A stretch of 64,000 nt of DNA from an uncultured Gammaproteobacteria bacterium (GTDB lineage Bacteria > Patescibacteriota > Patescibacteriia > Magasanikbacterales > UBA922): positions 9,573 through 73,572 of the forward strand of contig CAZFUL010000006.1 in assembly GCA_964522435.1 (NCBI GenBank), in the 5' to 3' direction. Numbering within the stretch: the first letter of the stretch is position 1; every line of letters starts with the position of its first letter. The translations under genes and the position numbers were made by a program. The notes below the pieces were generated by a model that was not told the DNA's origin, ran no database searches, and saw only the letters and a list, made by a program, of their open reading frames with translations. Below are positions 4,861-36,456 of the stretch, piece by piece.

Positions 4861-4916
4861 AAAAAGACTTCCGGCCGTGGTTATTGCCACAAATTGGTCG
4901 AAAGCTCTTTTTTATT
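4861..4916 (+). repeat. Structured ~55-nt repeat element, copy 3 (internal hairpin GTGG-ttattg-CCAC)
   Basis: aaaaagacttccggccgtggttattgccacaaattggtcgaaagctctttttt. Covariation relative to copies 1 and 2 keeps the pairing. Confidence 0.5.
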
Positions 4917-4993
4917 TTAATCATAAGGAATGTTTGACTATAGTATCATTGCACGGCATAGCATAACAGGAAAAAACTAAAAAAATACGAAAA

Positions 4994-5026
4994 CAAAAAA
5001 CCCACCGTTCTGGTGAGTTTTTTATT
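4994..5026. terminator. Weak bidirectional intrinsic terminator-like hairpin (CACC-gttct-GGTG flanked by A-run and T-run)
   Basis: aaaaaacccaccgttctggtgagtttttt. Confidence 0.3.
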
Positions 5027-5254
5027 TTCATCTGTTTTCCTTTCTGTTGAAAGAAACACACATGGAATTGGCCCGGGGTGTATGCGTAAAGCAACCCCGG
5101 GGATCTTTTACTTCCCCAGCTCAGTTGGCTAGCGAGCGCAGGTTGTGCGCAGGTCAGGCTCTATGAGCTGGAGAACTGTTAGGTGGGAAAGAGCAAAGGT
5201 AGGTGCCCAGACAGAGTGCCGGGGCAGAGTTGGTGGGGGTCCCTGGTCAGCGGG

Positions 5255-7738
5255 TTAGCGCTGCCAGGGGCCGCAGCCGAGGGCGGCGCGAGGAACAAAG
5301 ATGTTCCCCGGCGCCGCACCGCCGCACGCGTGCTGGTGCTGCACGTACTGGCGCGGAATCCGCGCCCACGCCGCCCCGTTGATGCTGGTCTCGACGACCA
5401 GCGTCTCCAGGGAGGGCGCGCCTGCATCGCAGGAGTAGTACGGCATGGCCGCGTTGAGGTTCCGGGCCACGCGGGCCCAGATCTCGAGGCCGCTGGCGCG
5501 GGTGCACGCCTCAACCCCGTTCATCTCGACGATGAACTCACTCGAGTTGGCCTCGGGGCCAATCTCGATGATGTCATCGCCGTCGGCGGTCGTGAGACCG
5601 CCGTGGATGAGGTGGGGCTGGCAATCAGCACCGCAGGTCATGCGGACGCGGATGGCGGCCGGAGGAGGCGGGGGCGGGGCGGCGACACAGATGCCGCCCA
5701 CGCAGTTCTGGCCCGCGGCGCAGGCGAAGTCCGCGGGGCAGAGGGCCACGCGGCAGTCGCCGTCGTCACAGACCTCGCCCACGCCGCAGTCGGCGTTCTC
5801 GGCGCACTCGGCGGGCGGGGGCGGGGGGGGCTGGACGCACCGGTTGTTGGTGCAGCTCCAGCCCTGGGGGCAGTCCACGACCAGCCGGCAGAAGCCGGGG
5901 ATGGGGTCGCAGGTCCCGTTGTTGCACTCTTCGCCGACATCACAGTCGGCATCCTCCTCGCACTCGAGGGGCAGGGTGCAACGACCGAGCTGGCAGACCT
6001 GGCCACGGGGGCACAGGTTGTTGCCTTCGTCGACATTGCCGTCGCCGTTGTCGTCGCGGGCGTTGCAGAGCTCCGCGGGGGGCTCGCTGCAGTCGAGATC
6101 ATCATCGTCGGTGAGGGTGTCACCGTCGCTGTCGAACCCGTCCGCGCAGAACCACTCCGCGGGGTTGCACTGCCCGTCGCCATCGCGATCCAGGCAGGTC
6201 GTGCAGACCCGGTCATCGCCGGGTGCCTCGCTGCCCGGTACCTGGCACACATGGATGTGGCTGGCCGGGAGGCGGGGGGAAACACAGGCGGAGTAGTTGT
6301 GGGCGGGGAGCCCATCCGCCTGCTGCCGGAAGTCACGGCAGACCCAGTTGGGGTTGAGGCAGGTGCGGTCGGCCAGGCAGGGTGCCCGGCAGGCCGCGTC
6401 GTTCTCGTCCTCGTTGGCGCTTTCGCCGCAGAGAACGTTGTCATCGATGGAGCCGTTGCAGTCGTTGTCGATGCCGTCGAAGGCCTCGGTCACCGGGTTG
6501 CCCGGCTGGCCGCTGCACTCGACAGCGCCCTGGTTGTTGCAGACGAAAGCTCCGGGGCGCTGACAAGCGCCCACGCCGACGGTGCAGGCACCGCCGACGT
6601 TGAAACCTTCGTCCGTGCGGCCATCGCAGTCGTTGTCGTCCCCGTCACACCGCTCGTTCTGCGGCGCGATGGGGTCGTCGTTGGGAATGCACAACGCGTT
6701 CATCCCCCCGTTGGGGGGACAGACCACGATGCCGGGCTGGGCGCATTCGCCCTGCCCGAAGGTGCAGTCTTCCCCGACATTGAAGTCTTCGTCGCTCTGA
6801 CCATCACAGTCGTCGTCGATGTTGTTGCAGGTCTCCTCGCCAGGGGCGAGGGGCTGGCCCACACAAAGGGCCGCGCCGGAGAGGTTGGCGGGGTTGCACA
6901 CCCGCTCACCCTGAACCATGCAGGCACCGAGACCCACGTCGCAGGCCTCATCGAGGTTGAAGTCTTCGTCGCTCTGGCCATCACAGTCGTCGTCGATGCC
7001 GTTGCAGAGTTCGTTGGCCACAGGCTGGCCCGCCACGGCGTCGCAGACGACGCCGTTGAGCTGCGCATTGCAGACCAGTTCACCCGCCGTGAGGCAGGCG
7101 CCCTGGCCGGCGTTGCAGGCCTCCCCAAGGGTGGGGAAGGTCTCGTCGGTCTGGCCATCGCAGTCGTTGTCGCGCCCGTCGCAGAGCTCCGCCTGGGGAG
7201 GCGGGCCCGCGGGGGCGTTGCAGACAACGGCGCCCTGGGCGTTACACGCCCGGACGCCCTGCGCGGCGCAGTCACCGTCGCCGAGGTTGCAAACGCCCCC
7301 GATGGTGTTGTTACCTTCGGGGCCGAAGTCCTCGTCGACGGTGCCGTCGCAGTCGTTGTCGACGCTGTCACAGGTCTCGGCCACAGGCGCTCCGGGCTGG
7401 AGCGGCAGGCCATCCGCACCCTCGCACTCGAGGGCGAGGAGGTCGGCCGTGGGGCCCATCACGCCCATCCGGTGACAGGCGCCGACGCCCGTCTCACAGG
7501 GCTGGCCGGCGTTCTCGAAACCCTCATCAACACGACCGTCACAGTCGTTGTCGCGGCCGTCCCGGAGCTCGGGGAGCCCCAGGCCGGAGTTGTTGTCTCC
7601 GTCGTTGCAGTCGATGCGGGCGGGGTCGGAGCTCTCGCCGAGCTCCTTCTTCCGCCCGAGGTTGAAGTCATCACCGCAGCCCGTGAGGGCCGCGAGAGGA
7701 AGGCTCACAAAGAGCCAGAACAGGATGCGCACGTTCAT
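5255..7738 (-). CDS. Secreted lipoprotein with 7 MopE-like putative metal-binding repeats (C-x-DG-x-DNDCDG-x-DE) plus C-terminal Cys-rich/poly-Pro modules
   Basis: 827 aa. Lipoprotein signal MNVRILFWLFVSLPLAALTGC. Repeats include GRDNDCDGRVDEGF, DSVDNDCDGTVDEDF, GRDNDCDGQTDETF, IDDDCDGQSDEDF (x2), DDNDCDGRTDEGF and IDNDCNGSIDDN. PPPPPP linkers. Confidence 0.7.
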   Translation of the reverse strand: MNVRILFWLFVSLPLAALTGCGDDFNLGRKKELGESSDPARIDCNDGDNNSGLGLPELRDGRDNDCDGRVDEGFENAGQPCETGVGACHRMGVMGPTADLLALECEGADGLPLQPGAPVAETCDSVDNDCDGTVDEDFGPEGNNTIGGVCNLGDGDCAAQGVRACNAQGAVVCNAPAGPPPQAELCDGRDNDCDGQTDETFPTLGEACNAGQGACLTAGELVCNAQLNGVVCDAVAGQPVANELCNGIDDDCDGQSDEDFNLDEACDVGLGACMVQGERVCNPANLSGAALCVGQPLAPGEETCNNIDDDCDGQSDEDFNVGEDCTFGQGECAQPGIVVCPPNGGMNALCIPNDDPIAPQNERCDGDDNDCDGRTDEGFNVGGACTVGVGACQRPGAFVCNNQGAVECSGQPGNPVTEAFDGIDNDCNGSIDDNVLCGESANEDENDAACRAPCLADRTCLNPNWVCRDFRQQADGLPAHNYSACVSPRLPASHIHVCQVPGSEAPGDDRVCTTCLDRDGDGQCNPAEWFCADGFDSDGDTLTDDDDLDCSEPPAELCNARDDNGDGNVDEGNNLCPRGQVCQLGRCTLPLECEEDADCDVGEECNNGTCDPIPGFCRLVVDCPQGWSCTNNRCVQPPPPPPAECAENADCGVGEVCDDGDCRVALCPADFACAAGQNCVGGICVAAPPPPPPAAIRVRMTCGADCQPHLIHGGLTTADGDDIIEIGPEANSSEFIVEMNGVEACTRASGLEIWARVARNLNAAMPYYSCDAGAPSLETLVVETSINGAAWARIPRQYVQHQHACGGAAPGNIFVPRAALGCGPWQR

Positions 7739-8320
7739 GGTGCGATCTCCTTATAGTCAGCAGTGGGTGCTCTCGCCTTCCCCACTCACATCAAACGATG
7801 ATCACCATCTAGGTCACGCCGATATGCTTATGCCTCATTGGTATTGAGGTAAGCAATCATTGTTTCCCCGAGCAACTTTACCGTTACCCGCGCGTTCTCC
7901 TCCCCTAACGATGGGGCAAAGAACTGATGGCATTCACAATCTTTCAGTAAGTAGAGTTGGTTCAAGCGGTTGTACGCACAGATGCCCGAGCTGGGCAAAC
8001 CATACCCGAGCACCGTGCCGGGTTACTGTACGCAGGAAAGTGCTCTTTGTTTTTGTAGAGCAGCTTCATGCGTACAGCAACGCCGGAGGCGTATCTATAT
8101 TATTACTTTTATTCCTCAATTGTAAGGATCAAATTGCTAAACAGTCAGCGCATCATTAAACACTATGTTTGATCATTTGTCAATGGTACGCAGTTCTGTT
8201 CCCCACTGGCGCGAGGTACAGAGTCGATTTGATTCGGCCTCGGTATACGAGGCACCAGTGGGAGGGGGGTTCGGGGATTTGCTTGAGGGGAGAGGCGGGT
8301 GGGGCACCCGGGACAGCCGA

Positions 8321-9226
8321 TCAATCGGCGAGTTCCCAGATGCCCGAGATGAGGGCGCCGCCAACAAGGCCGATAAGCGCAGAAGGAGCGCAGTCGTAGA
8401 GGTCGCTGGGACCTTCATCTTGCTCTCCGCACAAAGCGGCCATTCCGACAGCACCAGCTGCCATCGGCACCGCCCATTTGACGGCGGTGTAGGCATTGGA
8501 GTGGCTGCCGGCGGGCGGCGGGTCGATGAAGAGCATCCGTCCCCCGTCGAGGGGGATGGAGCACTCCCGCCCCTCTTCCACGCAGAGCGTGGCGAGGGCG
8601 TTGGGCTCCAACACTGCCTTCATGCAGGTCTCCAGGGACTTGGCCAAGATGGAGAGCGTATCTGCTCCCACCCCGGCCGAGTGGGCCACGGTGATCGCAC
8701 GGGCTTTGGCCTCGCACGCGGAGGTGACCAGACCTTGCTGGATCAGCCGGTCCAACTTGGCGTTGGCGGCGTCCAGCTTGGCTTGGGTTTCTTCGTCGTG
8801 CAGGGTCAGGGCGTCGGAAACGCCCTCGATGGCGCCCATGAGCTCCGTGTGCCGATCCTCTGCCTGCTTGCTGAGCAAGTCGAGCCGGTCGAGGACCGGA
8901 CGGAGGTTGACGCCACGTTCGCGAGAGGCGATGCGCTTCGCAGCGCGCTCGCAGGCCGCGACGAAACCGCGGGGGTCACAGCGCTCTTCGAAACAGCGCG
9001 CTGCTTCCTCCAGCTTCTCCTCACAGGTGCTCGCGTCGGCGCGGGAGGCGCCGTTCTTGAACTCCTTCGAAGCCGCCAGCATGTCGGCGGCAACGAGACG
9101 AGCGGTGGCCAGCGCACTGGCGGCCGCGTATCGGGGGTTGTTGGTCGCATCCCCGGTCGCCGAAGCGCCCGAGGGGAGAAACCCTGCCAGGAAGGCGAGG
9201 GCAAAAAAGAAACTGGAAAACTTCAT
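8321..9226 (-). CDS. Hypothetical secreted protein (signal peptide MKFSSFFFALAFLAGFLPSGASA), Ala-rich helical
   Basis: 301 aa. Good RBS (GGAGGAGAAAAAATC-ATG). A hairpin CCCCTGC-ctcttca-GCAGGGG lies between this and the upstream gene. Confidence 0.45.
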   Translation of the reverse strand: MKFSSFFFALAFLAGFLPSGASATGDATNNPRYAAASALATARLVAADMLAASKEFKNGASRADASTCEEKLEEAARCFEERCDPRGFVAACERAAKRIASRERGVNLRPVLDRLDLLSKQAEDRHTELMGAIEGVSDALTLHDEETQAKLDAANAKLDRLIQQGLVTSACEAKARAITVAHSAGVGADTLSILAKSLETCMKAVLEPNALATLCVEEGRECSIPLDGGRMLFIDPPPAGSHSNAYTAVKWAVPMAAGAVGMAALCGEQDEGPSDLYDCAPSALIGLVGGALISGIWELAD

Positions 9227-9272
9227 GATTTTTTCTCCTCCCCTGCCTCTTCAGCAGGGGGGCTCCATTGTT

Positions 9273-9875
9273 TCAGTTGTTGACCATGAGCCCGCAGCTT
9301 TCGCTGCAGATGGGTTCGGCCTTGGCGCGGTCGAAGCCGAGCTTGACCTGGTCGCTGACGCATTCTTTGATGCAGTCCGCGACCTCATCGCTGCCGGCCT
9401 TCGCCGGGGCGGCGGGCGCCGCGGGGGCGGGGGGGCTGCTGTCACGGCCGAAGCCGAGCAGCAGCGCCACCAAGAGCAAGCAGAGGACGATGGCGGCGAC
9501 GAGCGCCACCATCATTCCCTTGCCGTTGTTGCGGTTCTGCTGCCCGCGGATGAGGCCGGACAGATCCGTCGTTGCATCTTCCACGTGGCTCCGCACCGCG
9601 GAGGCCACGCGGCTCACAGCGCCGGGGGTCAGATCGACCTGCACCGGCGCCGCCACGGGCGCGGGGATGACCGCGGCCGCGGGAGTGGGGCTGGGCTTCG
9701 CCGGGGGCAGGGGCGGGAGCACCTTGGGAGGCGCGGCCGGCGTGGGAGCCGGCTTCACAGGCGCATGAGGGTTGTTGGGAGCGACCCCACCCGGAGGGGC
9801 GGGGGGCGGATTCGTGGTTCCTCCGGGAGGAGGAACCTGGTTGGGAGGCAGACTCCCAGTTCCGGTAACAGACAT
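9273..9875 (-). CDS. Pro-rich single-pass membrane protein with C-terminal Cys-containing ectodomain
   Basis: 200 aa. RBS AGGAGG 7 nt upstream of ATG. N-terminal PPxxP-rich low complexity, TM helix MMVALVAAIVLCLLLVALLLGF, C-terminus with 4 Cys. Confidence 0.45.
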   Translation of the reverse strand: MSVTGTGSLPPNQVPPPGGTTNPPPAPPGGVAPNNPHAPVKPAPTPAAPPKVLPPLPPAKPSPTPAAAVIPAPVAAPVQVDLTPGAVSRVASAVRSHVEDATTDLSGLIRGQQNRNNGKGMMVALVAAIVLCLLLVALLLGFGRDSSPPAPAAPAAPAKAGSDEVADCIKECVSDQVKLGFDRAKAEPICSESCGLMVNN

Positions 9876-10109
9876 TTTGACCTCCTAGGTCATGCGCCCG
9901 GGACACGGACGCGGTGTGAATGCGCTGTGCCCCGGGCCATGGGGTTGCGCGGTTGTGCTCTCTAGAAATGAAATTGGCCAAGCTAAGGGCAACACTACCC
10001 TTATGTTAGCCAATTCCATTCCATATATATATTCTCAAGCAAATTGTAATGAACCGTTTGTTCGCCATAGCCTTTATAGGGCAGTGGCGGTAGCAAGGCT
10101 ATTACCTTA

Positions 10110-10268: not shown

Positions 10269-13200
10269 TTACGCCGCATTCCTTACCACAGTCGTATCAG
10301 TCCCCTGTTTTGGTACCATCACTGGGTCAACCAGCTCTTGTTTTATTAATAAATCTAGCGGATAGAGCTCATACTCATTCCCAGCGTCCACCTGAAAGAC
10401 TGCTTGACGCACCCCATTAACTCGAGACCAAATAATCTCACCGGTTGTTGGTGTTCCCAAAAGGTCCATTTGTAATTTGCCCCCAGCCATTTGTGCTACT
10501 AATCTATCTGGGAGATCAAAGGCAATACTCTTCTTCGCTACCGCATCCCAAGAACGCAACGTAACCGCATCCCCTTTTCGTTCTAATACTATTGGAGTCT
10601 GTGCACTTGCTTGCGGAGCAAACTCAACAACGTTATTTTGATTTTGAGGAGCAGCTTCAGTTGGGGGTACGGCTGGTTTAGTCTCAACAGGAGCAACAGG
10701 TTGCTCTGTCTGTTGTTCTCCTATTACTGGTGGAACAGTTGCTTGAACAGGTTCGGGTAATTCCACAGGAGAGGCATATTGATCGTTTGTTACATCTGCT
10801 ACTCGATAATATTCATAACTCTTCGTCCCATTTGCTGCTTGTCCAGCATCCACACGGAAAAATGGTACTGTTTCTTTAACTGTTGGATCATAGCGAAATT
10901 GCACATCAACCGCAGTTGGTGTTTCAGCAATGGGCACAATTAATTTATTATCTTGCAGTTTTGATTCCCACGCAGCGGGTAACGTTATTGGTTGGGCTTG
11001 CCGTTGCGTTTCATTCCATACAGAAATTTGCTGCTTGCCTGATTCTACTGCGGGCAATACCACAATCGGTTTATCGGCTGTTGGGAGGAGTGATACATCA
11101 CTGCGATCAACCATCATGGGTTTACTCATAATCTCTGCCACCTTATCTTTCCATGCTCGGATCAAATCCTTCTTTTCTTCTGGATCAGTTATATCGGCGG
11201 TTGGATATTTCTTTACATAGTCTTTTGCAAATTCATCAAATGCTTTTTGACCATCTGCTCCCCGTTCTTGAAACAATGCGCGGGTTCTCATCTCGCGTAA
11301 TAGCGCTTTATCGGTGGTAATTTGTGTCACTTTGTTTTCAAATAGTTGTTTCTCTCGTAGTTGTTGTTCTTGTTTAAGATCAACAGCATCTGTTTTGGGT
11401 ATATTTCCGCCTCGCAACGCTTCCATATCCGTTTTCAACACCTTTCCATCATCAGTACGAATATACACCACTTGCTTGCCTTGTTCCGGGCGAATCCAAT
11501 ATTCTGCACGTTTGCCATTACTATTGGTCATGCCGCTGCGGTTGGTGGAATCTAATTTGTCTGGCAAGGTTGCGGCTACCACTTTTTGTGCATCTGCTTT
11601 TGATACCAGCGCATCCATTCCTTTATTTTTCTCGCCTTGCAATTCTGCCAAGGTTGTTTTCATCACCGTACCGGTATTGGTTTTAATATACACGGCAGCA
11701 TCTGGTTGTTTGCCAGTGACCCAATATTCATAGGCACCTTGTTTGCCTACGGCAATGCCCGTTCTGTTGCCACGAGTAAATTGTTCTGGCAACGCAGGTT
11801 TGGTAATGCGTCCTTCATCATCCAATTCTGCCTTAAGAATTTCTGATTTTGGTGCAAATCGCTGTTGTTCGTTAACTATTTCAAGCCGTTGTCTAGGCAT
11901 ATCAGTCAACGATGCTTCACGATTTAAATCAGATAACAATGCTTTTGCTTTTGCCCCTTCAAACTGATACACGCTTGCCTTTCCTTGTGCATCAACATGT
12001 TTCACAAATAAAAAGCTCTTCCCATCGATCGTTTTTATATACACTTCATTGGCTCTCTCTGTTGAACCAAATAACGCACTTCGTTCTAAGGCAAAGCCAT
12101 TAATACGTACTGCTTTGGGAGGGAGGCTGTCAATCTTAACAATACCATGTTTTTCTCCCAACGCGCCTAAACTATGTTTAGCTGTTTCTGCTGGAAGTAC
12201 TTTTTCTGGAAAAGATTTGGCACCATGCTCTTTAATAAACTCTTTGTCTGCGGTAATACCAATCGTCCCATCATCTTTGATAAATGGTTTAAATTCAATT
12301 TGTTTTCCATTTACTTCAAACAATGGTGTTTTGGTATAGGTGCGGCTGTTCATGTCCCACCCAGCATCTTTTGCTAATTCAACACGCCAACGATGCAATA
12401 CTTGATTATCATTCAAGGTAGTATATTCTGGATGCGCTATTCGTTCTTTTTCTATAATCAACGCTTTCATGGTAGCATCTTGTTGTAATGTATTTGCCAC
12501 ATGCAACACATTTTTACCACGCGCATCTTCACCCGCCAACGTAAATTTGTTTAAGTTTTTTTGCAGGTCACCTACCCCGACAGGTCGTTCGGCTGTTTCC
12601 ATACGCGATTGTACTGGTCTTACGACTTCACGATCTTGTGCTCCTGCATAACGCCCATCAGCACTGTCTTGCACGTGTTCTGGTTGTTCCGCAGTAACAT
12701 CTTCCAGTTTCATTCCTGTCATCTTGTTTATTTCATGATCCAAATGATGCGGACCATCCATCGTGGGTAAGGCATATCGTACACCGTCCACGCCAAGCCC
12801 CAACGCCGCAGTAAAAATACCAGCAGGCAATCCTGCTTTAAGTGCTTCGAGAATCCGCGTTTGTTGAGATTGTGTTGGTGAGCCTTTTTCTAAAGTGGTC
12901 AATTTTGCATTGAGTGCTTTTAATGTTGCTTCGTTTATCTTGCCATTAGCGAGTGCACGCTCCAACTTAAGAATGGCATCCTGTTTCGCTTGTTCAGCAA
13001 ATTCTCCTTTTTTATAATAACTTTCTACACTACGACGCAATGTTCCGCTGGTTAAGCGTGCTGCGGTTTTGGCAAGGATATGTCCACTACTCATGGCAAG
13101 TGTTCCCCCAACCAGTGCACCACCAACAAAAGTAAAGATATCGCCAACAAATCGTTTATTGCCTTTCGCATTCAAAAATAAATCACCGCTAAATAAATTC

Positions 13201-16200
13201 GCAATACCACGTGCAGCAACACGAGATAGTTCTATCTTGTTTGATTTTGCATTCGTATCGTAGGCTTGTGGATATAATTCTGCATTGCGTCTGCCAACAT
13301 TCGCGACTAATTTTTCCAAGCGATATTCTGTTTGTCGCTCAATATTATTTTTTCCTTTTTCATTTGCCATGAGCGTATTCAAACTTGCCTCATGCACGGT
13401 TTTACTCGTAAATTGTAGATTCGTTTTACTGTTAAATCCTTCGAGCATCGTCTGCATAGCAGCAGCAAAACGTTCCTGACCAAACGTTCCTTCTGTTTGT
13501 GCAAATACGGCTCGTTGTCGTGCGTCTGCCTCTTGTACTACGTCAGCCCGTGCGCTTTGTTTTTTATCTAGTTGTCCTCGCTTTAATACGCGACGAACTA
13601 ACGAGGTTGTTCCAAATGCCAAACCACCCACAAGAGCCGCTGGTGCGGCAACCGTTGTGGCTAAACCAGCAACTGACAATCCTGCTCCGGCTGATCCGAG
13701 CAATACCCCGAGGTGTTTTTTGGTTCCGCGTACTAATCTATCCGCAAAACCAAAATTTGCTTGATCCATGAGTTCTTGTTGTTGATCGTAACTTCCCAAC
13801 GCACTATCACGAGCAATTTGTCTACTCAAGGCATCGTTGGCCATTGTTTGCATGACCTCTTGCATCATAAAGCAAAGCTGACTCTGCCATGTTTGCAAAA
13901 ATTGATCAAACGATGTGAAACCAGCTTTTTTAACACGCAATTCTAACAAGGCTTTCTTTGCCCCATCAATACCATCAAAAATATTTTTAAAGGCTGCTTC
14001 TACTTGGCGAGGATCTGGATTCTCTATCAACGACCGATATAGATCATTAAGCATGGTTGCACTAAACAGCTCTTTTAATTCCTCCATGCCACTCTTTTTT
14101 CGTTCAATAGTATAGATCTTTTGATCAACATTCTGGCGCCAAACAGATTCAAGAATACGTTGCTCTTGATTACTTTCTAGATGCTGTAACACAATTTCTT
14201 TTTGTCCGTTCTGTTCTTGTATAGCAACAACGACAAACGACGCGGTCGTACCATCTTGGCTTTTAAAAGTTACCACCTCACCCACTTTTGCGGGCTTGCC
14301 TTCGACCATAAATATCTCTGCGTTTCTTTTTTGTTCTTTTGCCGCGTCAACCGCAGCGTCCACCATGCCATGTAATTCGAGGGTTGCGCCATCGGCAACT
14401 TGCTTGCCCATAAAGGCTTGTAGTGTTGCTTCATCCCAAACAACCTCTGTCCCTTTATTGGATTTAAGGAGTAACTCTCCGTTTTCAGATAGTCCTTGTA
14501 CGGTTAATAGCAATACTTTTTTATCTTTACTTGTCCACTTAAGGGTAGCCCCAATCTCAAACGTTCGCCCAATAAATTCAATTGGCGTGGTTTTTTCTGG
14601 AGTTAACACAAAGTCTTGCCAGGTACTTGCGTCAAAGGTAAGCAATGCACCACCCATATCCAGTGCTTTTACTCGTAGCTGTGTACCATCGTCGTTTATA
14701 CCCACAATTTCATAGCGTTTTTTTGTATTCCCTGCTTTTTGTGCGTGATAAATATCTCCCACAAACAAGCGACGACCAGCAAAGGCAATGCCTTTAGGTG
14801 CTTCTTTCTTTGCCGTTGGTGTTTCTTTTTCTCCAACGAGCTCACCACTATCAAAGGCTGCTTTCCACGTATCTCTAGTAAAACGTTCTTCTATATCTGT
14901 TCCAAGCCGTTGCACCACAATTTCAGATCCTGTAGCTGTAGGAATAACACCCAAAACTTCTACCAAATACCCCGGATCTGGACTAACCATTCGTTTCCAT
15001 TTACTCTTTTTTGTCGGAGCACGTTCAAATGTTCCTAAAGCAATAGGATCATCCACTGGACGCACTTTTTCTTTTGCGGCTTGGGGTTCACCCATCAATT
15101 CAATTAATTTGGGTGTTGCCAAAACAGCCGCATCCCATTCTGCTTTGGTAAAATATACTTTTTCTGTTTTTCCTGATTGTTTTACGGCAATTTTGCCACT
15201 GTCTGGGTCAATTCCTAAAATTTCAATCGTATGTGGATTGGTTGGATCAATGAGGTTTTTCCATTTGCTGCCTTTTTTAGGTTGCTCTGCAAACGCAGCA
15301 AGCGCAACTTCATCATCGACAATGCGGGGTTCTGTGACAGGTTTTTTCTCATCTTTTACATAGATATCTCCATCGGCTATTGCTTTATCCCAATCCAATA
15401 GCGTCATTTCTTCCATTACACGTGTTCCAACTTTTTGAAACACAATACTCCCGTTTTCAGGATTAATACCCAATATTTCTATGGTATGTGCAGTACCATC
15501 TGATTTAATTCTTCCCCACTTACTATCTTTTGTTGGTTCTCCATCAAAATCTTCTAACGCGGTTTCATCATTTACAAAACGAATCTTTTCAGGTGCTGGC
15601 GCTTTATCTTTGTTGTCTTTTACAGAAATTGTTCCACTTGCCACTCCTGCATCCCAATCAGCAAGATCCATATATTCTTCATCTTGTTGTTTACCCAATC
15701 GATGAAACACTAATTGATTCGTATCTGGACGAATGCCTTTTATCACAATCGTATATCCTTGTTGTCCTGTTTTTTTGATTGTCCACTGTGCATCTTTTTT
15801 TGGTTCGCCAGCAAATTCTGCGAGTGTTGCTTCATCATTAATAACAATAACTCGTTCTTCTTTTGGAGGAGGAGTCTCTTTTTCGCCTTTGCGAGAAATT
15901 GTTTTTTCCACTACCACGCCATGATTCCAATCAGCTAAATCAATATACTCTTCATCTTCCGGTTTGCCAAAGCGATGCACAACAAGCTGCTCTGTATCAG
16001 GTCGAATTCCTTTTATAACAATCGTATAGGCTCGTTGACCATTTCGACGCACAGTCCACTGAGAATCTTTTCTTGGTTCTTCAGCAAACTCTTTCAGTGC
16101 GGCTTCGTCGTTAACCACTAAAATTTTCTCTTCTTTTGGAGGCGCTTGTTCTTTTTTGATTTCAATAAGACTACGATCGGCAAGTGCATCATGCCATTCT

Positions 16201-17375
16201 TGTTCAGTAAAAAATTCTTGATCACTCGTGTCTTGTCTTTGCAGTGCTAAACGTCCATAAGAAGTTACCCCTTTTACAATAAGTGTATGTGGTACCTTTT
16301 GACCAGTTTTTTTTCTTGTCCAACGACTATCAATATGAGGTGAACCGTCAAACGCTTCAAGCGATGCACGATCTTTGGTAATCGTCTCTGGTTGTGGTGG
16401 TTCTTTATCACTAATCAATTCTGCTAAAATATCCTCATTCCAATCTTGTTGTGTATAGAACACCTTATCACGACTTTGTTTTTTTATAGCAACAAGCCGT
16501 CCATCTTGAACACCTTTAATAACAAAAGGAAATTGTTTTTTACCATCATGAAACCAAAACGTGCTTCCTGCACGCGGATCCTGCATAAAACCCGCAAATG
16601 CTTCCTCTTCTGTTTGTAAGCCACGAGATTCTGGCGCTGCGGTTGTATCTGGTATATCTTCTATTCTGGCATGAAAATTATGTAACTCTTGTAGTGTGTA
16701 GGGTTGCGTATCCCCCTCGACAAATACACGTCCATCTTTTATTTTTTCCACAATAACAATTCCCCTAAACAAATTACCATCAGCCCCTTCTTGATCAAGC
16801 TCAATATGCATACCTGCACGGAGCTGTTTCTTTTGAAAATAAATGCTATTTTTTCGTATTTCCCAATCAGTCCCTGAAGCTTGAGATTCTGGCGAAGCAA
16901 CGGCACTAAGATTCGTTGTTGGTGGAGGAACAGACTCGTTATCTAACCCTTTACTTGCAAGAAAATCAGTTACCTGAATAAGCGGCACGTTTCTCGTTGC
17001 CGCTTGAAAACTTCGAGATAAGGCCGGAATGTCTACCTTTTTTCCCGGAGGTAATTCATCTAACACAACTAATTCAGCAACAATTTTTGCTTTTTCATTA
17101 CGAAGTCTCACTAATTGTTCGACAAATGGTCGTAATGCTGTTTGTGTGCTTTTTTGCATCAATGTTTTAATCGCTGCATCAATAGCCCTTAACCGTTGAT
17201 CAACTTGTTGTGCAATTTTTTTATTTTCGGCTTTCATTTCTTCAATCACCTGCCTCACCTCTTCTCGATATTCACCGACAGTTTGCAACGCAGCCTCTTT
17301 ATCAGCATGCAGTTCATGCAATGTTTCTACTTTCTTTTGTAAGTCTTCTAATTGTTGTTTATGTTGTCCAGGCAT
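10269..17375 (-). CDS. Giant (2368 aa) repeat protein without signal peptide: N-terminal coiled coil, ~10 copies of a ~90-100-aa module, Gly-rich hydrophobic segments
   Basis: Continuous ORF. Repeated modules such as ...YTIVIKGIRPDTEQLVVHRFGKPEDEEYIDLADWNHGV... recur with variation. Glycine-zipper-like TM segments (GLSVAGLATTVAAPAALVGGLAFG; FTFVGGALVGGTLAMSSG). Confidence 0.6.
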   Translation of the reverse strand: MPGQHKQQLEDLQKKVETLHELHADKEAALQTVGEYREEVRQVIEEMKAENKKIAQQVDQRLRAIDAAIKTLMQKSTQTALRPFVEQLVRLRNEKAKIVAELVVLDELPPGKKVDIPALSRSFQAATRNVPLIQVTDFLASKGLDNESVPPPTTNLSAVASPESQASGTDWEIRKNSIYFQKKQLRAGMHIELDQEGADGNLFRGIVIVEKIKDGRVFVEGDTQPYTLQELHNFHARIEDIPDTTAAPESRGLQTEEEAFAGFMQDPRAGSTFWFHDGKKQFPFVIKGVQDGRLVAIKKQSRDKVFYTQQDWNEDILAELISDKEPPQPETITKDRASLEAFDGSPHIDSRWTRKKTGQKVPHTLIVKGVTSYGRLALQRQDTSDQEFFTEQEWHDALADRSLIEIKKEQAPPKEEKILVVNDEAALKEFAEEPRKDSQWTVRRNGQRAYTIVIKGIRPDTEQLVVHRFGKPEDEEYIDLADWNHGVVVEKTISRKGEKETPPPKEERVIVINDEATLAEFAGEPKKDAQWTIKKTGQQGYTIVIKGIRPDTNQLVFHRLGKQQDEEYMDLADWDAGVASGTISVKDNKDKAPAPEKIRFVNDETALEDFDGEPTKDSKWGRIKSDGTAHTIEILGINPENGSIVFQKVGTRVMEEMTLLDWDKAIADGDIYVKDEKKPVTEPRIVDDEVALAAFAEQPKKGSKWKNLIDPTNPHTIEILGIDPDSGKIAVKQSGKTEKVYFTKAEWDAAVLATPKLIELMGEPQAAKEKVRPVDDPIALGTFERAPTKKSKWKRMVSPDPGYLVEVLGVIPTATGSEIVVQRLGTDIEERFTRDTWKAAFDSGELVGEKETPTAKKEAPKGIAFAGRRLFVGDIYHAQKAGNTKKRYEIVGINDDGTQLRVKALDMGGALLTFDASTWQDFVLTPEKTTPIEFIGRTFEIGATLKWTSKDKKVLLLTVQGLSENGELLLKSNKGTEVVWDEATLQAFMGKQVADGATLELHGMVDAAVDAAKEQKRNAEIFMVEGKPAKVGEVVTFKSQDGTTASFVVVAIQEQNGQKEIVLQHLESNQEQRILESVWRQNVDQKIYTIERKKSGMEELKELFSATMLNDLYRSLIENPDPRQVEAAFKNIFDGIDGAKKALLELRVKKAGFTSFDQFLQTWQSQLCFMMQEVMQTMANDALSRQIARDSALGSYDQQQELMDQANFGFADRLVRGTKKHLGVLLGSAGAGLSVAGLATTVAAPAALVGGLAFGTTSLVRRVLKRGQLDKKQSARADVVQEADARQRAVFAQTEGTFGQERFAAAMQTMLEGFNSKTNLQFTSKTVHEASLNTLMANEKGKNNIERQTEYRLEKLVANVGRRNAELYPQAYDTNAKSNKIELSRVAARGIANLFSGDLFLNAKGNKRFVGDIFTFVGGALVGGTLAMSSGHILAKTAARLTSGTLRRSVESYYKKGEFAEQAKQDAILKLERALANGKINEATLKALNAKLTTLEKGSPTQSQQTRILEALKAGLPAGIFTAALGLGVDGVRYALPTMDGPHHLDHEINKMTGMKLEDVTAEQPEHVQDSADGRYAGAQDREVVRPVQSRMETAERPVGVGDLQKNLNKFTLAGEDARGKNVLHVANTLQQDATMKALIIEKERIAHPEYTTLNDNQVLHRWRVELAKDAGWDMNSRTYTKTPLFEVNGKQIEFKPFIKDDGTIGITADKEFIKEHGAKSFPEKVLPAETAKHSLGALGEKHGIVKIDSLPPKAVRINGFALERSALFGSTERANEVYIKTIDGKSFLFVKHVDAQGKASVYQFEGAKAKALLSDLNREASLTDMPRQRLEIVNEQQRFAPKSEILKAELDDEGRITKPALPEQFTRGNRTGIAVGKQGAYEYWVTGKQPDAAVYIKTNTGTVMKTTLAELQGEKNKGMDALVSKADAQKVVAATLPDKLDSTNRSGMTNSNGKRAEYWIRPEQGKQVVYIRTDDGKVLKTDMEALRGGNIPKTDAVDLKQEQQLREKQLFENKVTQITTDKALLREMRTRALFQERGADGQKAFDEFAKDYVKKYPTADITDPEEKKDLIRAWKDKVAEIMSKPMMVDRSDVSLLPTADKPIVVLPAVESGKQQISVWNETQRQAQPITLPAAWESKLQDNKLIVPIAETPTAVDVQFRYDPTVKETVPFFRVDAGQAANGTKSYEYYRVADVTNDQYASPVELPEPVQATVPPVIGEQQTEQPVAPVETKPAVPPTEAAPQNQNNVVEFAPQASAQTPIVLERKGDAVTLRSWDAVAKKSIAFDLPDRLVAQMAGGKLQMDLLGTPTTGEIIWSRVNGVRQAVFQVDAGNEYELYPLDLLIKQELVDPVMVPKQGTDTTVVRNAA

Positions 17376-20581: not shown

Positions 20582-21040
20582 ATGAATTATTTTATGCCTA
20601 TTTTAGCGAAAAATAAAAAAGCCTATTTTGATTACGAAATCCTCCAAACCCTTGAGGCTGGTTTGGTATTAACGGGAGCAGAAGTAAAATCGCTGCGCCG
20701 TGGTCATATTAACTTTCAGGGAGCATTTATCAGTATACAGCTAAAACATGCCTATTTGAAACAAGCGCATATTGGCCACTATCCCTATGCCGCACAAGTC
20801 CCGGGAGAAAACCCAGAACGAGAAAGAAAACTCTTATTGCATGCAAAAGAAATCGCTTATTTACGCTCAAAATTAGAAGAAAGAGGCTTGACAGTTATCC
20901 CCCTTTCTTTATATACTAAAGGCCCTCGAATTAAACTAGAAATCGCAATTGCCAAAGGAAAGAAAACCTACGACAAACGAGAAAGTATTAAAAAGCGAGA
21001 ACGACAACGAGAAGATGCTCGCATTGCGAAAGAAAGATAG
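20582..21040 (+). CDS. smpB: SsrA-binding protein SmpB
   Basis: 152 aa. ...KKAYFDYEILQTLEAGLVLTGAEVKSLRRGHINFQGAFI... matches the SmpB family. tmRNA follows directly. Confidence 0.9.
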   Translation: MNYFMPILAKNKKAYFDYEILQTLEAGLVLTGAEVKSLRRGHINFQGAFISIQLKHAYLKQAHIGHYPYAAQVPGENPERERKLLLHAKEIAYLRSKLEERGLTVIPLSLYTKGPRIKLEIAIAKGKKTYDKRESIKKRERQREDARIAKER

Positions 21041-21045
21041 ATCAT

Positions 21046-21457
21046 GGGGATGACAGGGATCGATAGACGGATCCGCTGATATTTATGTGCATACCGAGGT
21101 CGCCTGTCCTCGTTAAAAGGCAAGGCAACACACAAGTGCAAACCTTGTAAACCGAGTTAGCAACGTATTTGCCCGTGTTTCACGCGCATTTACTCCAGCG
21201 CTCGCAACCGCTGTCGCGTAATAGCTTGATAGCCATCGCGCCCACGATACTCAATAGTGGAACCGTGGTGTCAACCCAATTGAGTGTAGATAGCGGATAT
21301 CTTGCATGGGTATCCCCCATCGAAATAAACCCCATGCAGGCTCTTGTGGATGTTGCTGGTTATATACCAACAATGAGCCTCAAAAAAAATCAGCTATGTA
21401 TGTAGGACATGATATAAGCCCGGACTAGACCCGAGTTCAATTCTCGGCATCTCCACA
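21046..21457 (+). ncRNA. ssrA: tmRNA (ssrA)
   Basis: 5' end GGGGATGACAGGGATCGATAGACGG matches the tmRNA acceptor/D-region consensus. 3' end has a T-arm CGAGTTCAATTCTCG and acceptor CATCTCC pairing with GGGGATG. Internal tag reading frame ends ...ALATAVA followed by tandem stops TAA-TAG (21219-21224). Sits directly after smpB. Confidence 0.85.
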
Positions 21458-21565
21458 AAAACAATGAGCAATGAACAATAAACAATGAACAAAACTTTCC
21501 CGTTCTGCAGTTTATTGAAGATAGCAAAATTGTTAATTGTTTATTGCTAATTGTTAATTGTTACT

Positions 21566-22435: not shown

Positions 22436-22780
22436 ATGCCAAGAGTAAAACGAGGGTTAGGCCACATCAAAAAACGACGAAACCTGTTAAAACGGGTAAA
22501 GGGATTTGGCGATGGTCGTAAAAACCTGATTAAACGAGCAAAGACCGCAGATACTCGCGCAGGCGCACATGCCTACCGAGATCGACGTGTAAAAAAACGA
22601 ACATTCCGCCGTCTCTGGCAAGTTCGCATTAATGCAGCAGTCCGAGATGTTGAAATGAGTTATAGTGTATTCGTTGGTGCACTCAAAAAGAAACAAGTGG
22701 GATTGAACCGCAAAGTACTTTCAGAGATTGCAGCCGAAAAACCAGCCGTATTCAAAAAAATTGTTGACTTCGTAAAATAA
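22436..22780 (+). CDS. rplT: 50S ribosomal protein L20
   Basis: MPRVKRGLGHIKKRRNLLKRVKGFGDGRKNLIKRAKTADTRAGAHAYRDRRVKKRTFRRLWQVRINAA... matches L20. Confidence 0.9.
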   Translation: MPRVKRGLGHIKKRRNLLKRVKGFGDGRKNLIKRAKTADTRAGAHAYRDRRVKKRTFRRLWQVRINAAVRDVEMSYSVFVGALKKKQVGLNRKVLSEIAAEKPAVFKKIVDFVK

Positions 22781-22785
22781 CGATA

Positions 22786-22818
22786 AAACCCTGCACCAGA
22801 ACGTTGCAGGGTTTTTAT
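22786..22818 (+). terminator. Rho-independent terminator after rplT (CCCTGCA-ccagaacgt-TGCAGGG-TTTTT)
   Basis: 7-bp stem plus T-run, directly 3' of the rplT stop. Confidence 0.8.
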
Positions 22819-22866
22819 ATTCCAAAAAAAATACCCTACTTGTCCACTGACAAGTACCCTTGCTAC

Positions 22867-22895
22867 TTGACACAATGCAAATCCGGTGCTAGACT
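22867..22895 (+). promoter_or_regulatory. Sigma-70-like promoter (TTGACA-17 bp-TAGACT), preceded by palindrome TACTTGTCcacTGACAAGTA (22837-22856)
   Basis: Consensus -35 with 17-nt spacer. The upstream perfect 8-bp inverted repeat could be an operator. Confidence 0.4.
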
Positions 22896-22904
22896 GTGTT
22901 ATTA

Positions 22905-23106
22905 AAAATTTTAAGAGGTCGATAGCGTGTTCGACGTTTGAGCAACAGATGCCCCCTCCTTCATCTGTTCTGCTCACGTCGAACACCCTGTCTGCCTCAT
23001 AAAAAAGACGCTTGCTGTAGCTCGATAGAATGTTCGATGTTTGAGCGGAGGTGCCCCCTCCTTCACCTCTATGCTCACATCGAACATTGTGTCGAGCTTT
23101 TTTTTT
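22905..23106 (+). ncRNA. Candidate sRNA: two tandem ~60-nt long hairpins (22927-22986, 23029-23088), each with loop CCCCCUCC, ending in a T9 run
   Basis: The two copies are ~75% identical and differ by compensatory changes on both stem arms (cgac/gtcg to cgat/atcg; cagatg/catctg to ggaggtg/cacctc). Promoter upstream. T-run terminator after hairpin 2. Confidence 0.4.
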
Positions 23107-23123
23107 CCACATATAAAAAACTA

Positions 23124-23152
23124 TTGACAGGGAAAGATTCCTATAGTATGCT
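23124..23152 (+). promoter_or_regulatory. Sigma-70-like promoter (TTGACA-17 bp-TATGCT) upstream of small ORF
   Basis: ttgacagggaaagattcctatagtatgct. Confidence 0.35.
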
Positions 23153-23220
23153 ATCTGCACATTTTACTCTCATCATTTCTTATTCATCTCCACTGTTTAG
23201 GATTGATTATTAGACGATCT

Positions 23221-23370
23221 ATGGGATACCGCAAAAAAAACAATCAACGAGCAGCACAACAACGTATTGTTTCTCGTAAAAAAAGAAATATCAAAGCAAT
23301 TAAACGCATGAATAAAGCACAGACACCAGGCCAAGCATTACACGAAAAAATGCATGGACGAACCGCGTAA
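23221..23370 (+). CDS. Hypothetical very basic 49-aa protein (MGYRKKNNQRAAQQRIVSRKKRNIKAIKRMNKAQTPGQALHEKMHGRTA)
   Basis: Short ORF, below the ORF-track cutoff, with its own promoter. Composition resembles small ribosomal/nucleic-acid-binding proteins but has no match to a specific family. Confidence 0.25.
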   Translation: MGYRKKNNQRAAQQRIVSRKKRNIKAIKRMNKAQTPGQALHEKMHGRTA

Positions 23371-23454
23371 TAGTTGACCGTTAACAAGTAACAATTAACG
23401 CTTTCAGCGTCTTCCTCGTTAATTGTTATACCTTAACTGTTACCAGTTATGCGT

Positions 23455-23530
23455 GGACCGGTAGTTCAATGGTTAGAGCACCGCCCTGTCACGGCGGAAG
23501 TTGCGGGTTCGAGCCCCGTCCGGTCCGCCA
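23455..23530 (+). tRNA. tRNA-Asp (anticodon GTC), CCA encoded
   Basis: Acceptor GGACCGG/CCGGTCC. D-arm GTTC-AATGGTTA-GAGC. Anticodon stem-loop CCGCC-CTGTCAC-GGCGG. T-arm GCGGG-TTCGAGC-CCCGT. Discriminator G plus CCA. Confidence 0.9.
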
Positions 23531-25168
23531 ATCATCTAAAACTGGGGTAACAACCCTAGTTTTTGTTTTCATTAAGCCAATTTCTTTGGTTATAGTGACT
23601 TTTTTCTTCCGATTGTACTCAATTAGGTAGAGATGTGGAGATTTGGCTGTATAGAGTACAGTTTGATCTTTGAGTACAGGGTTATAGTAAAAAAATTGGA
23701 ACATATCTCTTTTCTCTTCTGGGGTTGTTCCATAAAATCGGTCTTTGATGTTTTTTACAAAATCGAGATACGAAACGCAGGCTTCATACCAAACTTCTTC
23801 ATTTTTTTCTGTTACTCCCATTTCATCTTGTATAAGCTGCCTTTGTTTCGTTAACATTTCCTTCTGATACTTAAAATCTTCAATACTCAATAAATCCCCT
23901 TCTTTATTCTCTGGAGATATTTTCAGACTTACGAGGTTCTGGAACTTTGTCTCAATATTTTTTAATTCAGCAGTCTGTTTCTTCCGTTTTGCATTGTACA
24001 TCTCAACTTCTCCCGCATTTGTTTTATTTATCTCCTCAATAGCAAGCTCATAAAACTCTTCATCTATTTGTATATCTTCTAATAGGGCTTCGAGCTGTTT
24101 GTCTATCTCTGTTTCGGGTGTATATGCAATACCCTTACACTTCATGCACCTATAATAGACATGACCTTTTGCAGTAAGGGCTGATATATTTTTGCCACAC
24201 TCACCGCAAGCCATACTATTTGTATACCTGTAATAGTTCTTTGCGGAATGTGGCTTAGATCGCAATCCTAAGGCCTCTTGAGTGCGGTGAAAAAGCTCCT
24301 TTGTGATGAGTGCTTCATGACGAGTTTCTTCCGGTAACTCATCCGGCTCTATAATACTTTCCTTCCATGGAATAGCTCCATAGTAGAATGGATTTGTTAA
24401 TATTCTATGAATTGTCTGCTTACTTAACATCTTCTTGCTTCTGGTTGCGATAAGTCCCCATGACTCACTTTCTCTCCTTAGATGTGCAAGTGTGTACTTC
24501 CCAGTGGCTGATAAAATAAACAACTTTTTAACCAATGGAGCAATAATCGGATCTTGCTCGACCCGCTTCAAACGATGCCTACTCTCTTCCAGCACCGATT
24601 GCTTCTCTATCGTAAAACGCTTCCCTGATATCTTCCCATCCTTGTCTATATTCAAATAGCCTAATGGTGCATTTGACGGGTACTCCCCCTTCCTCAGCTT
24701 GGCCTTTATATCTCTCTGTACGAAATTACTTGTATCATCCGATGATTTTTTTGACATGGCCAGCTGAAGAGCCATAATAAAACCATCGTCACTATTTTTG
24801 TCGTATATTTTTTCTGGTGTACGAACGACATGTATCTCCCCCGTGTGAAGTTTGTGAAGCAACACTCCTGTATCAAGTGCATTCCGAGAAAGCCGAGATA
24901 AATGGCAACATAGGATCGCATCGGCTTTTCCCTCCTCCAAAATTTGGAGCATTCTCTTAAACTCTGGCCGACCAGGCGAATATGCAGATGCTGACTCCTC
25001 AAAATCAGCAATAATATTCAGATTGTGTCTCTTACATAATTTTTTCAAAACATCATCCTGAGAACGCAAACTCAATACCTGCCTATCATTTTCCTCAGAA
25101 GACTTTCTTTTATAGATAACATAACGAAGTTTATTTGGATCTAATTGTTTCTCTTCGTCAAAAAACAT
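23489..25168 (-). CDS. Large serine recombinase (integrase); 3' end overlaps tRNA-Asp
   Basis: 559 aa. N-terminal resolvase-type catalytic domain (YKRKSSEENDRQ... with nucleophile Ser). Central recombinase domain. Zn-ribbon (CGECGKN...YYRCMKCKG) and coiled-coil region as in large serine recombinases. Last ~14 codons are encoded by the complement of the tRNA 3' half. Confidence 0.85.
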   Translation of the reverse strand: MFFDEEKQLDPNKLRYVIYKRKSSEENDRQVLSLRSQDDVLKKLCKRHNLNIIADFEESASAYSPGRPEFKRMLQILEEGKADAILCCHLSRLSRNALDTGVLLHKLHTGEIHVVRTPEKIYDKNSDDGFIMALQLAMSKKSSDDTSNFVQRDIKAKLRKGEYPSNAPLGYLNIDKDGKISGKRFTIEKQSVLEESRHRLKRVEQDPIIAPLVKKLFILSATGKYTLAHLRRESESWGLIATRSKKMLSKQTIHRILTNPFYYGAIPWKESIIEPDELPEETRHEALITKELFHRTQEALGLRSKPHSAKNYYRYTNSMACGECGKNISALTAKGHVYYRCMKCKGIAYTPETEIDKQLEALLEDIQIDEEFYELAIEEINKTNAGEVEMYNAKRKKQTAELKNIETKFQNLVSLKISPENKEGDLLSIEDFKYQKEMLTKQRQLIQDEMGVTEKNEEVWYEACVSYLDFVKNIKDRFYGTTPEEKRDMFQFFYYNPVLKDQTVLYTAKSPHLYLIEYNRKKKVTITKEIGLMKTKTRVVTPVLDDWRTGRGSNPQLPP

Positions 25169-35809: not shown

Positions 35810-35907
35810 ACTCACCTAAACAAAAAACAGCCTTACTCAAAAGCTGTTTTTTTTCTTCCCCGAAGCATACTATTGCATCAGGGATCACCTCCTTCTTGGA
35901 AAAGATG

Positions 35908-36456
35908 TCATCGCCGCCGAAACAGCAAATACATCATAATGGTATCTGGAAGAGCAAAGCCAAGTGCTGGCGCCACATGGCCAATCGTGTATGCTGGAAT
36001 CGCAATGATGGTGCACACACAGGAGAGCCAATACAGCGTCCAGGCAACCCGGCTTTCTCGCTCGGGATGCTTCCACGCCGCAATGAGCGTGGGAATTGCG
36101 CCAATAATCATGACGATCGCATTCAACAGAATGCTTACTTCAGGATCATTAGTTCGCACCCAAGCAACAATACCCAGAATTGACACGCCCACACAAATGA
36201 TTTCGGTAAACGACCAGGTGGCCGTCCCATACCGAAATGAGAGTAGGGCGACAATAACGGATCCAATCGTCGCCCCCACAATTTGGCCATTAAGCGTATT
36301 GCTCGCACTCATCGCAATGAGGACAAGCAAATTGACGCTTGACCAAATCATCCACGTGGCCTTGTTTGGCCGGACCTTATTTTTGAGTACTCCCCAAATA
36401 TAGGGGACAAACCCAATAAAAAAAAGTACACCGGCTACCAGTTGAATTTTTTCCAC
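35908..36456 (-). CDS. Hypothetical 6-TM membrane protein (182 aa)
   Basis: ORF with regularly spaced hydrophobic helices. GC (~48%) elevated relative to neighbours. Confidence 0.4.
   Translation of the reverse strand: MEKIQLVAGVLFFIGFVPYIWGVLKNKVRPNKATWMIWSSVNLLVLIAMSASNTLNGQIVGATIGSVIVALLSFRYGTATWSFTEIICVGVSILGIVAWVRTNDPEVSILLNAIVMIIGAIPTLIAAWKHPERESRVAWTLYWLSCVCTIIAIPAYTIGHVAPALGFALPDTIMMYLLFRRR

Follow-up and report, generated by a model that had tools for sequence, protein, structure and literature searches.

What is encoded in the interval between rplT and the gene for tRNA-Asp on contig CAZFUL010000006.1, assembled from an uncultured bacterium? Within the 64,000-nucleotide (nt) stretch of this contig analysed here (positions 9,573 to 73,572 of the forward strand; hereafter the window, numbered from its first letter), the interval presents a promoter, two long and similar hairpins with identical C-rich loops and a terminal run of T residues. 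An initial annotation had proposed for it a small regulatory RNA (sRNA) that might occlude ribosome-binding sites, or alternatively a repetitive extragenic palindromic (REP)-like element or the leader of a tRNA operon. Comparison with related genomes indicates that the unit is a tandem duplicate of a small non-coding RNA gene conserved across Candidatus Magasanikbacteria, and very probably a real, independently transcribed structured RNA gene.

A self-contained unit of two long hairpins

The TTGACA-17-TAGACT promoter of the initial annotation and the nine T residues that it placed after the second hairpin are both present (Table 1), and transcription is predicted to start near 22902. As neither a promoter nor a U-tract separates the two hairpins, they would be made as one transcript of ~205 nt, and the proposed promoter-to-terminator unit of ~200 nt stands as a self-contained, non-coding one of conserved structure. 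The hairpins proved larger than first described, ~80 nt each with 32-38 pairs instead of ~60 nt, while the loop is indeed the same in both copies but spans 10 nt, CCCCCUCCUU, rather than eight. Folding of the + strand gave -97.5 kcal/mol compared with -46.1 +/- 4.2 for shuffled sequences (z = -12.1); the - strand folded at -89.5 kcal/mol (z = -8.9).

Between the two copies 17 of the 27 consensus pairs are identical, six are changed on both sides and four on one side. Five of the six double-changed pairs are still paired in both copies, the sixth being a C-C mismatch in hairpin 1 and A-U in hairpin 2, so that the near-complete compensation of stem substitutions that had been claimed is roughly right, with the reservation that two of the four single-sided changes leave a mismatch, one in each copy. 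A covariance model built from relatives recovered copy 2 at 82.1 bits (match 23015-23109, E 1.1e-20) and copy 1 at 65.5 bits (match 22912-23008, E 6.8e-16), these E-values being rough since calibration was shortened, and the next-best match in the 64 kb was a generic terminator at 23.5 bits.

Conservation and covariation among relatives

In a similarity search the nearest relatives of the window's RplT, at 69-100% identity, were from Patescibacteria, many of them named Candidatus Magasanikbacteria, and on this comparison the window DNA is that of a Magasanikbacteria-like Patescibacteria genome. Four loci fetched only as close RplT relatives (L001-L004) share one layout 3' of rplT, in which a TTGACA-N17-TANNNT promoter precedes a single long hairpin that bears the loop CCCCCUCCUU and is followed by a U-tract; their stem sequences differ from one another. 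With four further loci picked in the same way (L124-L127), the element was found in eight of eight, at 60-87 bits and with the same loop, which in one of them is closed by a C-G pair.

A search pattern combining promoter and loop, run over GTDB genomes, matched at least 119 stretches, and about 80 of the 119 listed matches fold into the same hairpin, almost all of them in metagenome-assembled genomes (MAGs) of Magasanikbacteria/Patescibacteria. More than 80 related genomes have the unit 3' of infC-rpmI-rplT, mostly as a single hairpin, and rplT is found just upstream in ~75 of 83 element-bearing loci. The element appears to be restricted to this clade, because of 80 metagenome rplT loci collected by an RplT profile search only four (L128, L129, L131 and L141) carry it. 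The predicted transcript is of ~95-110 nt in most relatives, compared with ~205 nt in the window, and tandem arrays occur in five genomes: two copies each in the window, L049, L129 and L131, and three in L035.

The covariation of the stems in homologous loci, on which the initial annotation had made its case depend, is strongly borne out. In an alignment of 79 distinct copies with a 27-pair consensus, a set chosen by the search pattern and a hairpin filter, 25 of the 27 stem pairs show compensatory double changes. Paired cells amount to 93.4%, against 75.1 +/- 0.5% in shuffled alignments and 36-47% with slid partners, and the covariation score is 0.68 versus 0.31. As G-U pairs far outnumber A-C (249 versus 36), the + strand is taken to be the RNA strand; the - strand loses 30-50 bits under the covariance model, and both promoter and U-tract also lie on the + strand. 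A run of at least four T follows the hairpin in 74 of the 79 aligned homologues.

These data bear directly on whether the hairpins could be repeated or mobile DNA of the REP type, or a small coding gene (MPPPS...) running across the loop, explanations that we regard as hardly credible. Two similar copies do lie side by side, and in each window copy CCCCCTCCT comes after an ATG or GTG. However, the covariance-model search with filters off found only these two tandem copies in the 64-kb window, relatives keep a single syntenic site, and the G-U covariation denotes selection at the RNA level. The coding gene was rejected, its supposed start being the closing base pair, which reads GCA, GTA or GCC in relatives, as was a link to mobile elements, two viral-contig pattern matches having failed the covariance model. 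Nor does the unit read as a tRNA-operon leader: it is ended by the U-tract, and tRNA-Asp has its own TTGAC-17-TATAAT promoter in relatives, occupying the gap in those where tRNA-Asp lies 110-130 nt from the loop.

The apical loop and its possible targets

The consensus of the 10-nt loop is (C/U)CCCCUCCUU. It stays constant while its closing pair covaries (G-C, A-U or C-G), and the few variants, UCCCCUCCUU in both copies of L131 and one of L129 and CCUCCUCCUU in the second copy of L049, all keep the core CCUCCUU. This core is the canonical 3'-terminal anti-Shine-Dalgarno (anti-SD) heptamer of 16S rRNA. A 16S gene giving the 3' end proper to the clade was sought in all fetched loci and none is present; the description of the loop as C-rich and anti-SD-like is upheld with respect to the canonical sequence.

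We tentatively favour, as a reading that falls somewhat short of probable, a trans-acting RNA working via its apical loop on rare G-rich sites, perhaps aided by a small basic protein. A strong sigma-70 promoter, often with a TTATCCACA box upstream, would drive an RNA that is nearly all one long hairpin of 30-38 bp and doubles as its own intrinsic terminator. The hairpin would display the loop with its copy of the 16S anti-SD tail, and the loop would act in trans, its most likely partners being rare G-rich (GGAGG-type) stretches of a few mRNAs, with which it would pair as in 6C, sX13 and cuckoo/CcsR. On the model of CcaF1 and the CcsR RNAs, the adjacent small basic protein described below plausibly assists by binding the RNA, and tandem copies may raise dose or valency.

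Several observations weigh against this reading. The constancy of CCUCCUU in all 79 aligned sequences is in part imposed by the loop-containing search pattern, the unbiased sample amounting to about a dozen loci. Across RplT identities from 46% to 89% the loop is constant, and with it a double-stranded mid-stem box, 5'-GUGUUYGG / CCGAACAC-3', is conserved in sequence despite its base-pairing (all 79 sequences have G-C at pair 20-76, and constancy at the adjoining pairs exceeds 85%), which suggests that the box is recognised by a protein or nuclease. Such constancy of loop and box would exceed the needs of a pairing seed and fits protein recognition at least as well. Moreover, in the seven RplT-selected loci, GGAG, GAGG, AGGA or GGGG occurs at -20 to -4 in only two of 46 genes, with starts as called automatically, and 9-nt words complementary to the 16S tail are not over-represented in related DNA. 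The classic class of target is therefore scarce, SD-like motifs being nearly absent before genes. In the window itself, the element's own antisense accounts for every site that departs from the loop complement by at most one mismatch, and the best other duplex, at 8258, lies inside a GC-rich island and antisense to a likely gene.

The clade, as judged from these sequences, hardly uses SD sites. In the same seven loci infC, rpmI, rplT and smpB have no SD-like motif at -20 to -4. In related DNA totalling ~650 kb, a start with a long open reading frame (ORF) comes after 10% of GGAGG occurrences compared with 7-10% for control 5-mers, whereas Firmicute control loci give 20% versus 6% by the same measure; this statistic, checked on the Firmicutes, discriminated poorly and was replaced by the count at called gene starts. 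Occlusion of GGAGG ribosome-binding sites, as the initial annotation had it, is thus doubtful given two SD-like motifs in 46 genes and little enrichment of GGAGG before starts, and of the proposed trans-acting translational regulator the trans role stays plausible while general SD occlusion does not. RNA targets, if any, must on this evidence be rare G-rich sites. Scans of the 64-kb window for exact and one-mismatch complements, for complements of at least seven nt and with RNAduplex gave no credible target, tmRNA (transfer-messenger RNA) and tRNA-Asp form only weak duplexes with the loop, and no recurrent or conserved neighbouring target site was found in the ~650 kb of related loci, which the analysis covered as pieces of 1-10 kb.

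Two side observations concern initiation and the 16S tail. Several start codons in the window, L001-L003 and L124-L127 lie a few bases past a TATAAT-like hexamer, and the sequences suggest that leaderless mRNAs are common in the clade. Separately, the + strand at 35882-35894 reads GGATCACCTCCTT, the exact canonical 16S 3'-end sequence, with no 16S gene present and a chance expectation of ~0.002 per window. Its - strand presents a perfect 13-nt SD sequence, AAGGAGGTGATCC, followed after 4 nt by ATG CAA TAG, a two-codon mini-ORF just past the stop of the ORF at 35908-36456 (-).

A small basic protein adjoining the RNA

Downstream of the RNA, behind its own promoter, the window carries a short ORF (Table 1) belonging to a family of highly basic proteins of 35-53 amino acids (aa) of the form MGxRK...KxKRDKKKLKR, with the consensus MGMRKK.N...K..R..AKIKRDKKKLKR. 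Homologues lie 3' of the RNA in 42 loci, each of them element-bearing, and in none of the element-free loci; many element-bearing loci are without a nearby small ORF. Most of these ORFs have a promoter of their own, and the family is without an SD site. In L030, L074 and L042 the ORF starts 8-14 nt past the U-tract without its own promoter, so that in these three loci the hairpin would be its 5' untranslated region (UTR). Searches against Pfam (three members, E<=10), NCBIfam and PDB profiles gave no match, and the 132 homologues detected among 5.8 billion proteins are every one unnamed or hypothetical. By analogy with the CcsR RNAs, the small protein is a possible candidate for an RNA partner.

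The same ORF and the mid-stem box bring up a different mode of action, in which the RNA would bind a protein, as a decoy or within a ribonucleoprotein, through a loop that mimics the 16S 3' tail and through the box; the partner could be the small basic protein itself or a factor whose usual binding site is the 16S 3' end, and the RNA would titrate, store or regulate it; where the hairpin forms the 5' UTR of the small ORF, this would extend to autoregulation of that ORF. We consider this possible, if on the unlikely side. In a clade that hardly uses SD sites an anti-SD copy has few RNA partners, the sequence of a double-stranded box is conserved, and identical loops repeated in tandem arrays resemble protein sponges. 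The confinement of the ORF family to element-bearing loci and its promoterless position directly after the hairpin in three of them point the same way, as does the situation in Parcubacteria, where a published survey could recognise an anti-SD motif in no more than 48% of 16S genes and bS21, which contacts the anti-SD helix, is reportedly often absent (PMC9297842). On the other hand, the small protein is without detectable similarity to known RNA-binding or ribosomal proteins, the box is kept in the many element-bearing loci that have no small ORF nearby, and the co-localisation of ORF and element could reflect the shared ancestry of one syntenic block.

A further elaboration, which we think distinctly unlikely, would make the element an abundant housekeeping RNA that carries an exact copy of the 16S anti-SD heptamer on a rigid stem and joins the clade-specific small basic protein in a particle mimicking the 16S 3' tail. 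If true, such a particle could control a tail-binding factor or capture the few SD-bearing (e.g. foreign) mRNAs, and would give these reduced-genome bacteria a level of translation control of their own, new in kind and perhaps linked to DnaA via the promoter box described below.

Very improbable, in our view, is a purely cis-acting element, serving either as the small ORF's 5' leader or as an insulator and very strong (bidirectional) terminator between the rplT operon and tRNA-Asp. In some relatives the promoter directly follows the rplT stop, which makes the hairpin the terminator of the operon as well; the pairing of A-rich 5' flanks with the U-tract is like that of bidirectional terminators, and the three loci with the ORF close behind the U-tract would suit a leader. 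An own consensus promoter and an invariant 10-nt loop are nevertheless superfluous for a terminator, the window already holds a separate rplT terminator (Table 1), and against a leader stand the own promoters of most small ORFs and of all adjacent tRNA-Asp genes as well as the many loci without the ORF.

A DnaA-box-like element before the promoter

The perfect palindrome reported upstream of the promoter exists but is not kept in relatives, in which only a TTATCCACA-like box inside it recurs. The 9-mer TTATCCACA is the DnaA-box consensus; the TTGTCCACT of the palindrome, 18 nt upstream of the promoter, is a two-mismatch variant of it. With at most one mismatch the box precedes 43 of 86 homologous sRNA promoters compared with 11 of 212 other promoter-like sites, on a background of ~0.7%, and in 34 of 42 cases the end of its TCCACA core lies 8-10 nt upstream of the -35 hexamer. 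In sequence and in its fixed position the 9-mer thus qualifies as a DnaA box, putative as to DnaA binding, and from this pattern it may mark DnaA-controlled or otherwise co-regulated strong promoters in the clade. On the - strand the palindrome also reads as a terminator-like hairpin.

Two other interpretations of this region were rejected. As a conserved operator the palindrome fails, since an inverted repeat of at least 6 bp is found in only 16 of 99 upstream regions, mostly as rplT terminators; and a replication origin is contradicted by the presence of a single box and by a cumulative GC skew that is monotonic over the window with no switch at the locus. Boxes resembling TTATCCACA were also seen before some small-ORF and tRNA-Asp promoters. 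Elsewhere in the window, at 4222-4392 (+), a candidate second small RNA combines the box TTTTCCACA (4281-4289), TTGACA at 4300 and TACTCT with a 64-nt hairpin and U-tract (-26 kcal/mol, z = -3.2), and this hairpin with its U-tract recurs in diverged form directly upstream, at ~4222-4282.

Organization of the locus

On the + strand the gene order is smpB (20582-21040), tmRNA (21046-21458), infC, rpmI, rplT, the hairpin unit, the small ORF and tRNA-Asp; the features around the unit are collected in Table 1.

Table 1. Features of the rplT to tRNA-Asp interval in window coordinates.
Feature	Position	Strand	Description
rplT	22436-22780	+	last gene of the infC-rpmI-rplT operon
rplT operon intrinsic terminator	22785-22815	+	11-bp perfect inverted repeat AAAACCCTGCA/TGCAGGGTTTT, then T-run; upstream context, outside the RNA unit
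Perfect palindrome	22837-22856	.	TACTTGTC-cact-GACAAGTA; 8-bp arms; contains TTGTCCACT (22840-22848)
Sigma-70-type promoter	22867-22895	+	-35 TTGACA (22867-22872), 17-nt spacer, -10 TAGACT (22890-22895); TG just before -10
Hairpin copy 1	~22918-22995	+	loop CCCCCUCCUU (22952-22961); mid-stem box GUGUUCGA/UCGAACAC; without own terminator
Hairpin copy 2	23020-23098	+	loop CCCCCUCCUU (23054-23063); stem also serves as terminator
T9 run	23098-23106	+	end of the predicted two-hairpin transcript
Second promoter	23103-23152	+	box variant TTTTCCACA (23103-23111); TTGACA (23124-23129), 17-nt spacer, TATGCT (23147-23152); drives the small basic ORF
Small basic ORF	23221-23370	+	49 aa, MGYRKKNNQ...HGRTA
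tRNA-Asp(GTC)	23455-23530	+	conserved neighbour downstream of the RNA unit; separate transcription unit in relatives

Some observations on the surroundings may be of use in annotation. A 166-aa minus-strand ORF (22660-23160) crosses both hairpins and is almost certainly spurious; called as a gene, it could mask the RNA. An inverted repeat of 12 bp, GTAACAATTAACG ... CGTTAATTGTTA (23388-23430), stands in the gap between the small ORF and tRNA-Asp; it has no U-tract, and could close the ORF transcript or belong to the tRNA precursor. A 559-aa ORF at 23489-25168 (-), with an N-terminus that by eye resembles a serine recombinase, ends antisense to tRNA-Asp, within the 3' portion of that gene, and is followed by a low-GC stretch (33-37%, 25-31 kb); the region from 23489 to ~31000 looks like a mobile element integrated at tRNA-Asp.

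Farther off, two giant ORFs lie at 10269-17375 (-), of 2368 aa and without a Pfam match, and at 49640-60757 (-), of 3705 aa. At ~5000-10000 there is a 5-kb island of 61-67% G+C, compared with a genome G+C of ~40%, in which long ORFs overlap on both strands and a minus-strand ORF (5258-7738) presents five MopE-type metal-binding motifs; the island could be foreign DNA or an assembly chimera. A similar GC-rich insert directly follows the sRNA of L003 (L003 ~4500-5100).

Relation to known systems

By general criteria the element has the make-up of a trans-acting sRNA: it is bounded by a promoter and an intrinsic terminator that belong to it, no ORF that crosses the loop is conserved, and a conserved single-stranded seed (CCUCCUU) sits on a covarying scaffold. 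To a rho-independent terminator it is similar in having a G+C-containing stem followed by a U-tract and in ending the rplT operon in some relatives, but it differs in its own promoter, ~35-bp stem, invariant 10-nt loop and stem box, none of which is needed to terminate. A search of Rfam, at the gathering score over the whole window and at E<=10 over 22700-23460, L004 and L129, matched only tmRNA and tRNA.

C-rich loops that pair with G-rich targets are known from 6C and sX13 (PMC6486639, PMC3771888). In 6C of Actinobacteria, as here, C-rich apical loops are the conserved functional part, two loops are present per RNA and conservation is phylum-deep; chaperone-independent pairing with G-rich mRNA sites is a further point of likeness (PMC6486639). 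The 6C loops are, however, C-runs without CCUCCUU on shorter stems, their hosts use SD sites, and the 6C covariance model gives no match (E<=10). RsaE/RoxS of Firmicutes and sX13 of Xanthomonas likewise direct C-rich single-stranded motifs against G-rich or SD regions of several mRNAs and have their own promoter and terminator (PMC3771888, PMC10433868), but they consist of several short hairpins with CCCC or UCCC, their models also give no match (E<=10), and the SD target is scarce in Magasanikbacteria.

The closest analogue would appear to be the cuckoo/CcsR RNAs of Alphaproteobacteria (alpha-r14, RF02344), in which two to four adjacent hairpins of 24-50 nt carry CCUCCUCCC loops on variable stems (PMC4615179), together with CcaF1. 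This tiny DUF1127 protein, rich in arginine, is an RNA binder with an effect on CcsR maturation, and the RNAs often adjoin, or lie in a UTR of, a gene for such a protein (PMC8034643). Both systems have anti-SD-like loops (CCUCCUCCC there; here CCCCCUCCUU, or CCUCCUCCUU in one L049 paralogue) on stems free to vary, tandem hairpin modules in variable number, and an adjoining gene for a very small, highly basic protein, with the RNA in its 5' or 3' UTR or on its own promoter. The differences are nevertheless considerable. RF02344 gives no match at the gathering score in the window or at E<=10 in 22700-23460, L004 and L129; the Magasanikbacteria RNA has the loop (C/U)CCCCUCCUU, stems of 30-38 bp, hairpins of ~80 nt and mostly a single module (two or three in five genomes); it belongs to another, SD-poor phylum and has a constitutive-looking sigma-70 promoter rather than a stress-sigma one; the adjacent protein is without the DUF1127 match of the CIN1 subgroup (three members, Pfam E<=10); and the RNA is fixed in synteny with infC-rpmI-rplT and tRNA-Asp. 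The absence of a covariance match, the other loop motif, the longer stems, the single module, the lack of DUF1127 and the other phylum make this a new family: the RNA resembles C-rich-loop sRNAs in anatomy, departs from every known family against which it was compared, and is an undescribed one.

The Candidate Phyla Radiation is a huge, mostly uncultured branch of the bacteria with reduced genomes and unusual ribosomes, and almost nothing on its regulatory RNAs was found in Rfam 15 or in the literature searched. The present element adds to one of its phyla a well-supported RNA family with a defined promoter, structure and loop and a candidate protein partner, locked into a neighbourhood of translation genes (smpB-tmRNA-infC-rpmI-rplT ... 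tRNA-Asp), and the covariance model can be used to annotate it in MAGs. That bacteria with so little use for SD sites should carry the anti-SD heptamer is a puzzle, and one that offers a handle on SD-independent translation initiation and its control. If the analogy with cuckoo/CcsR and CcaF1 holds, a module of anti-SD-loop RNA and tiny basic protein known in Alphaproteobacteria would have arisen, or persisted, far off on the bacterial tree.

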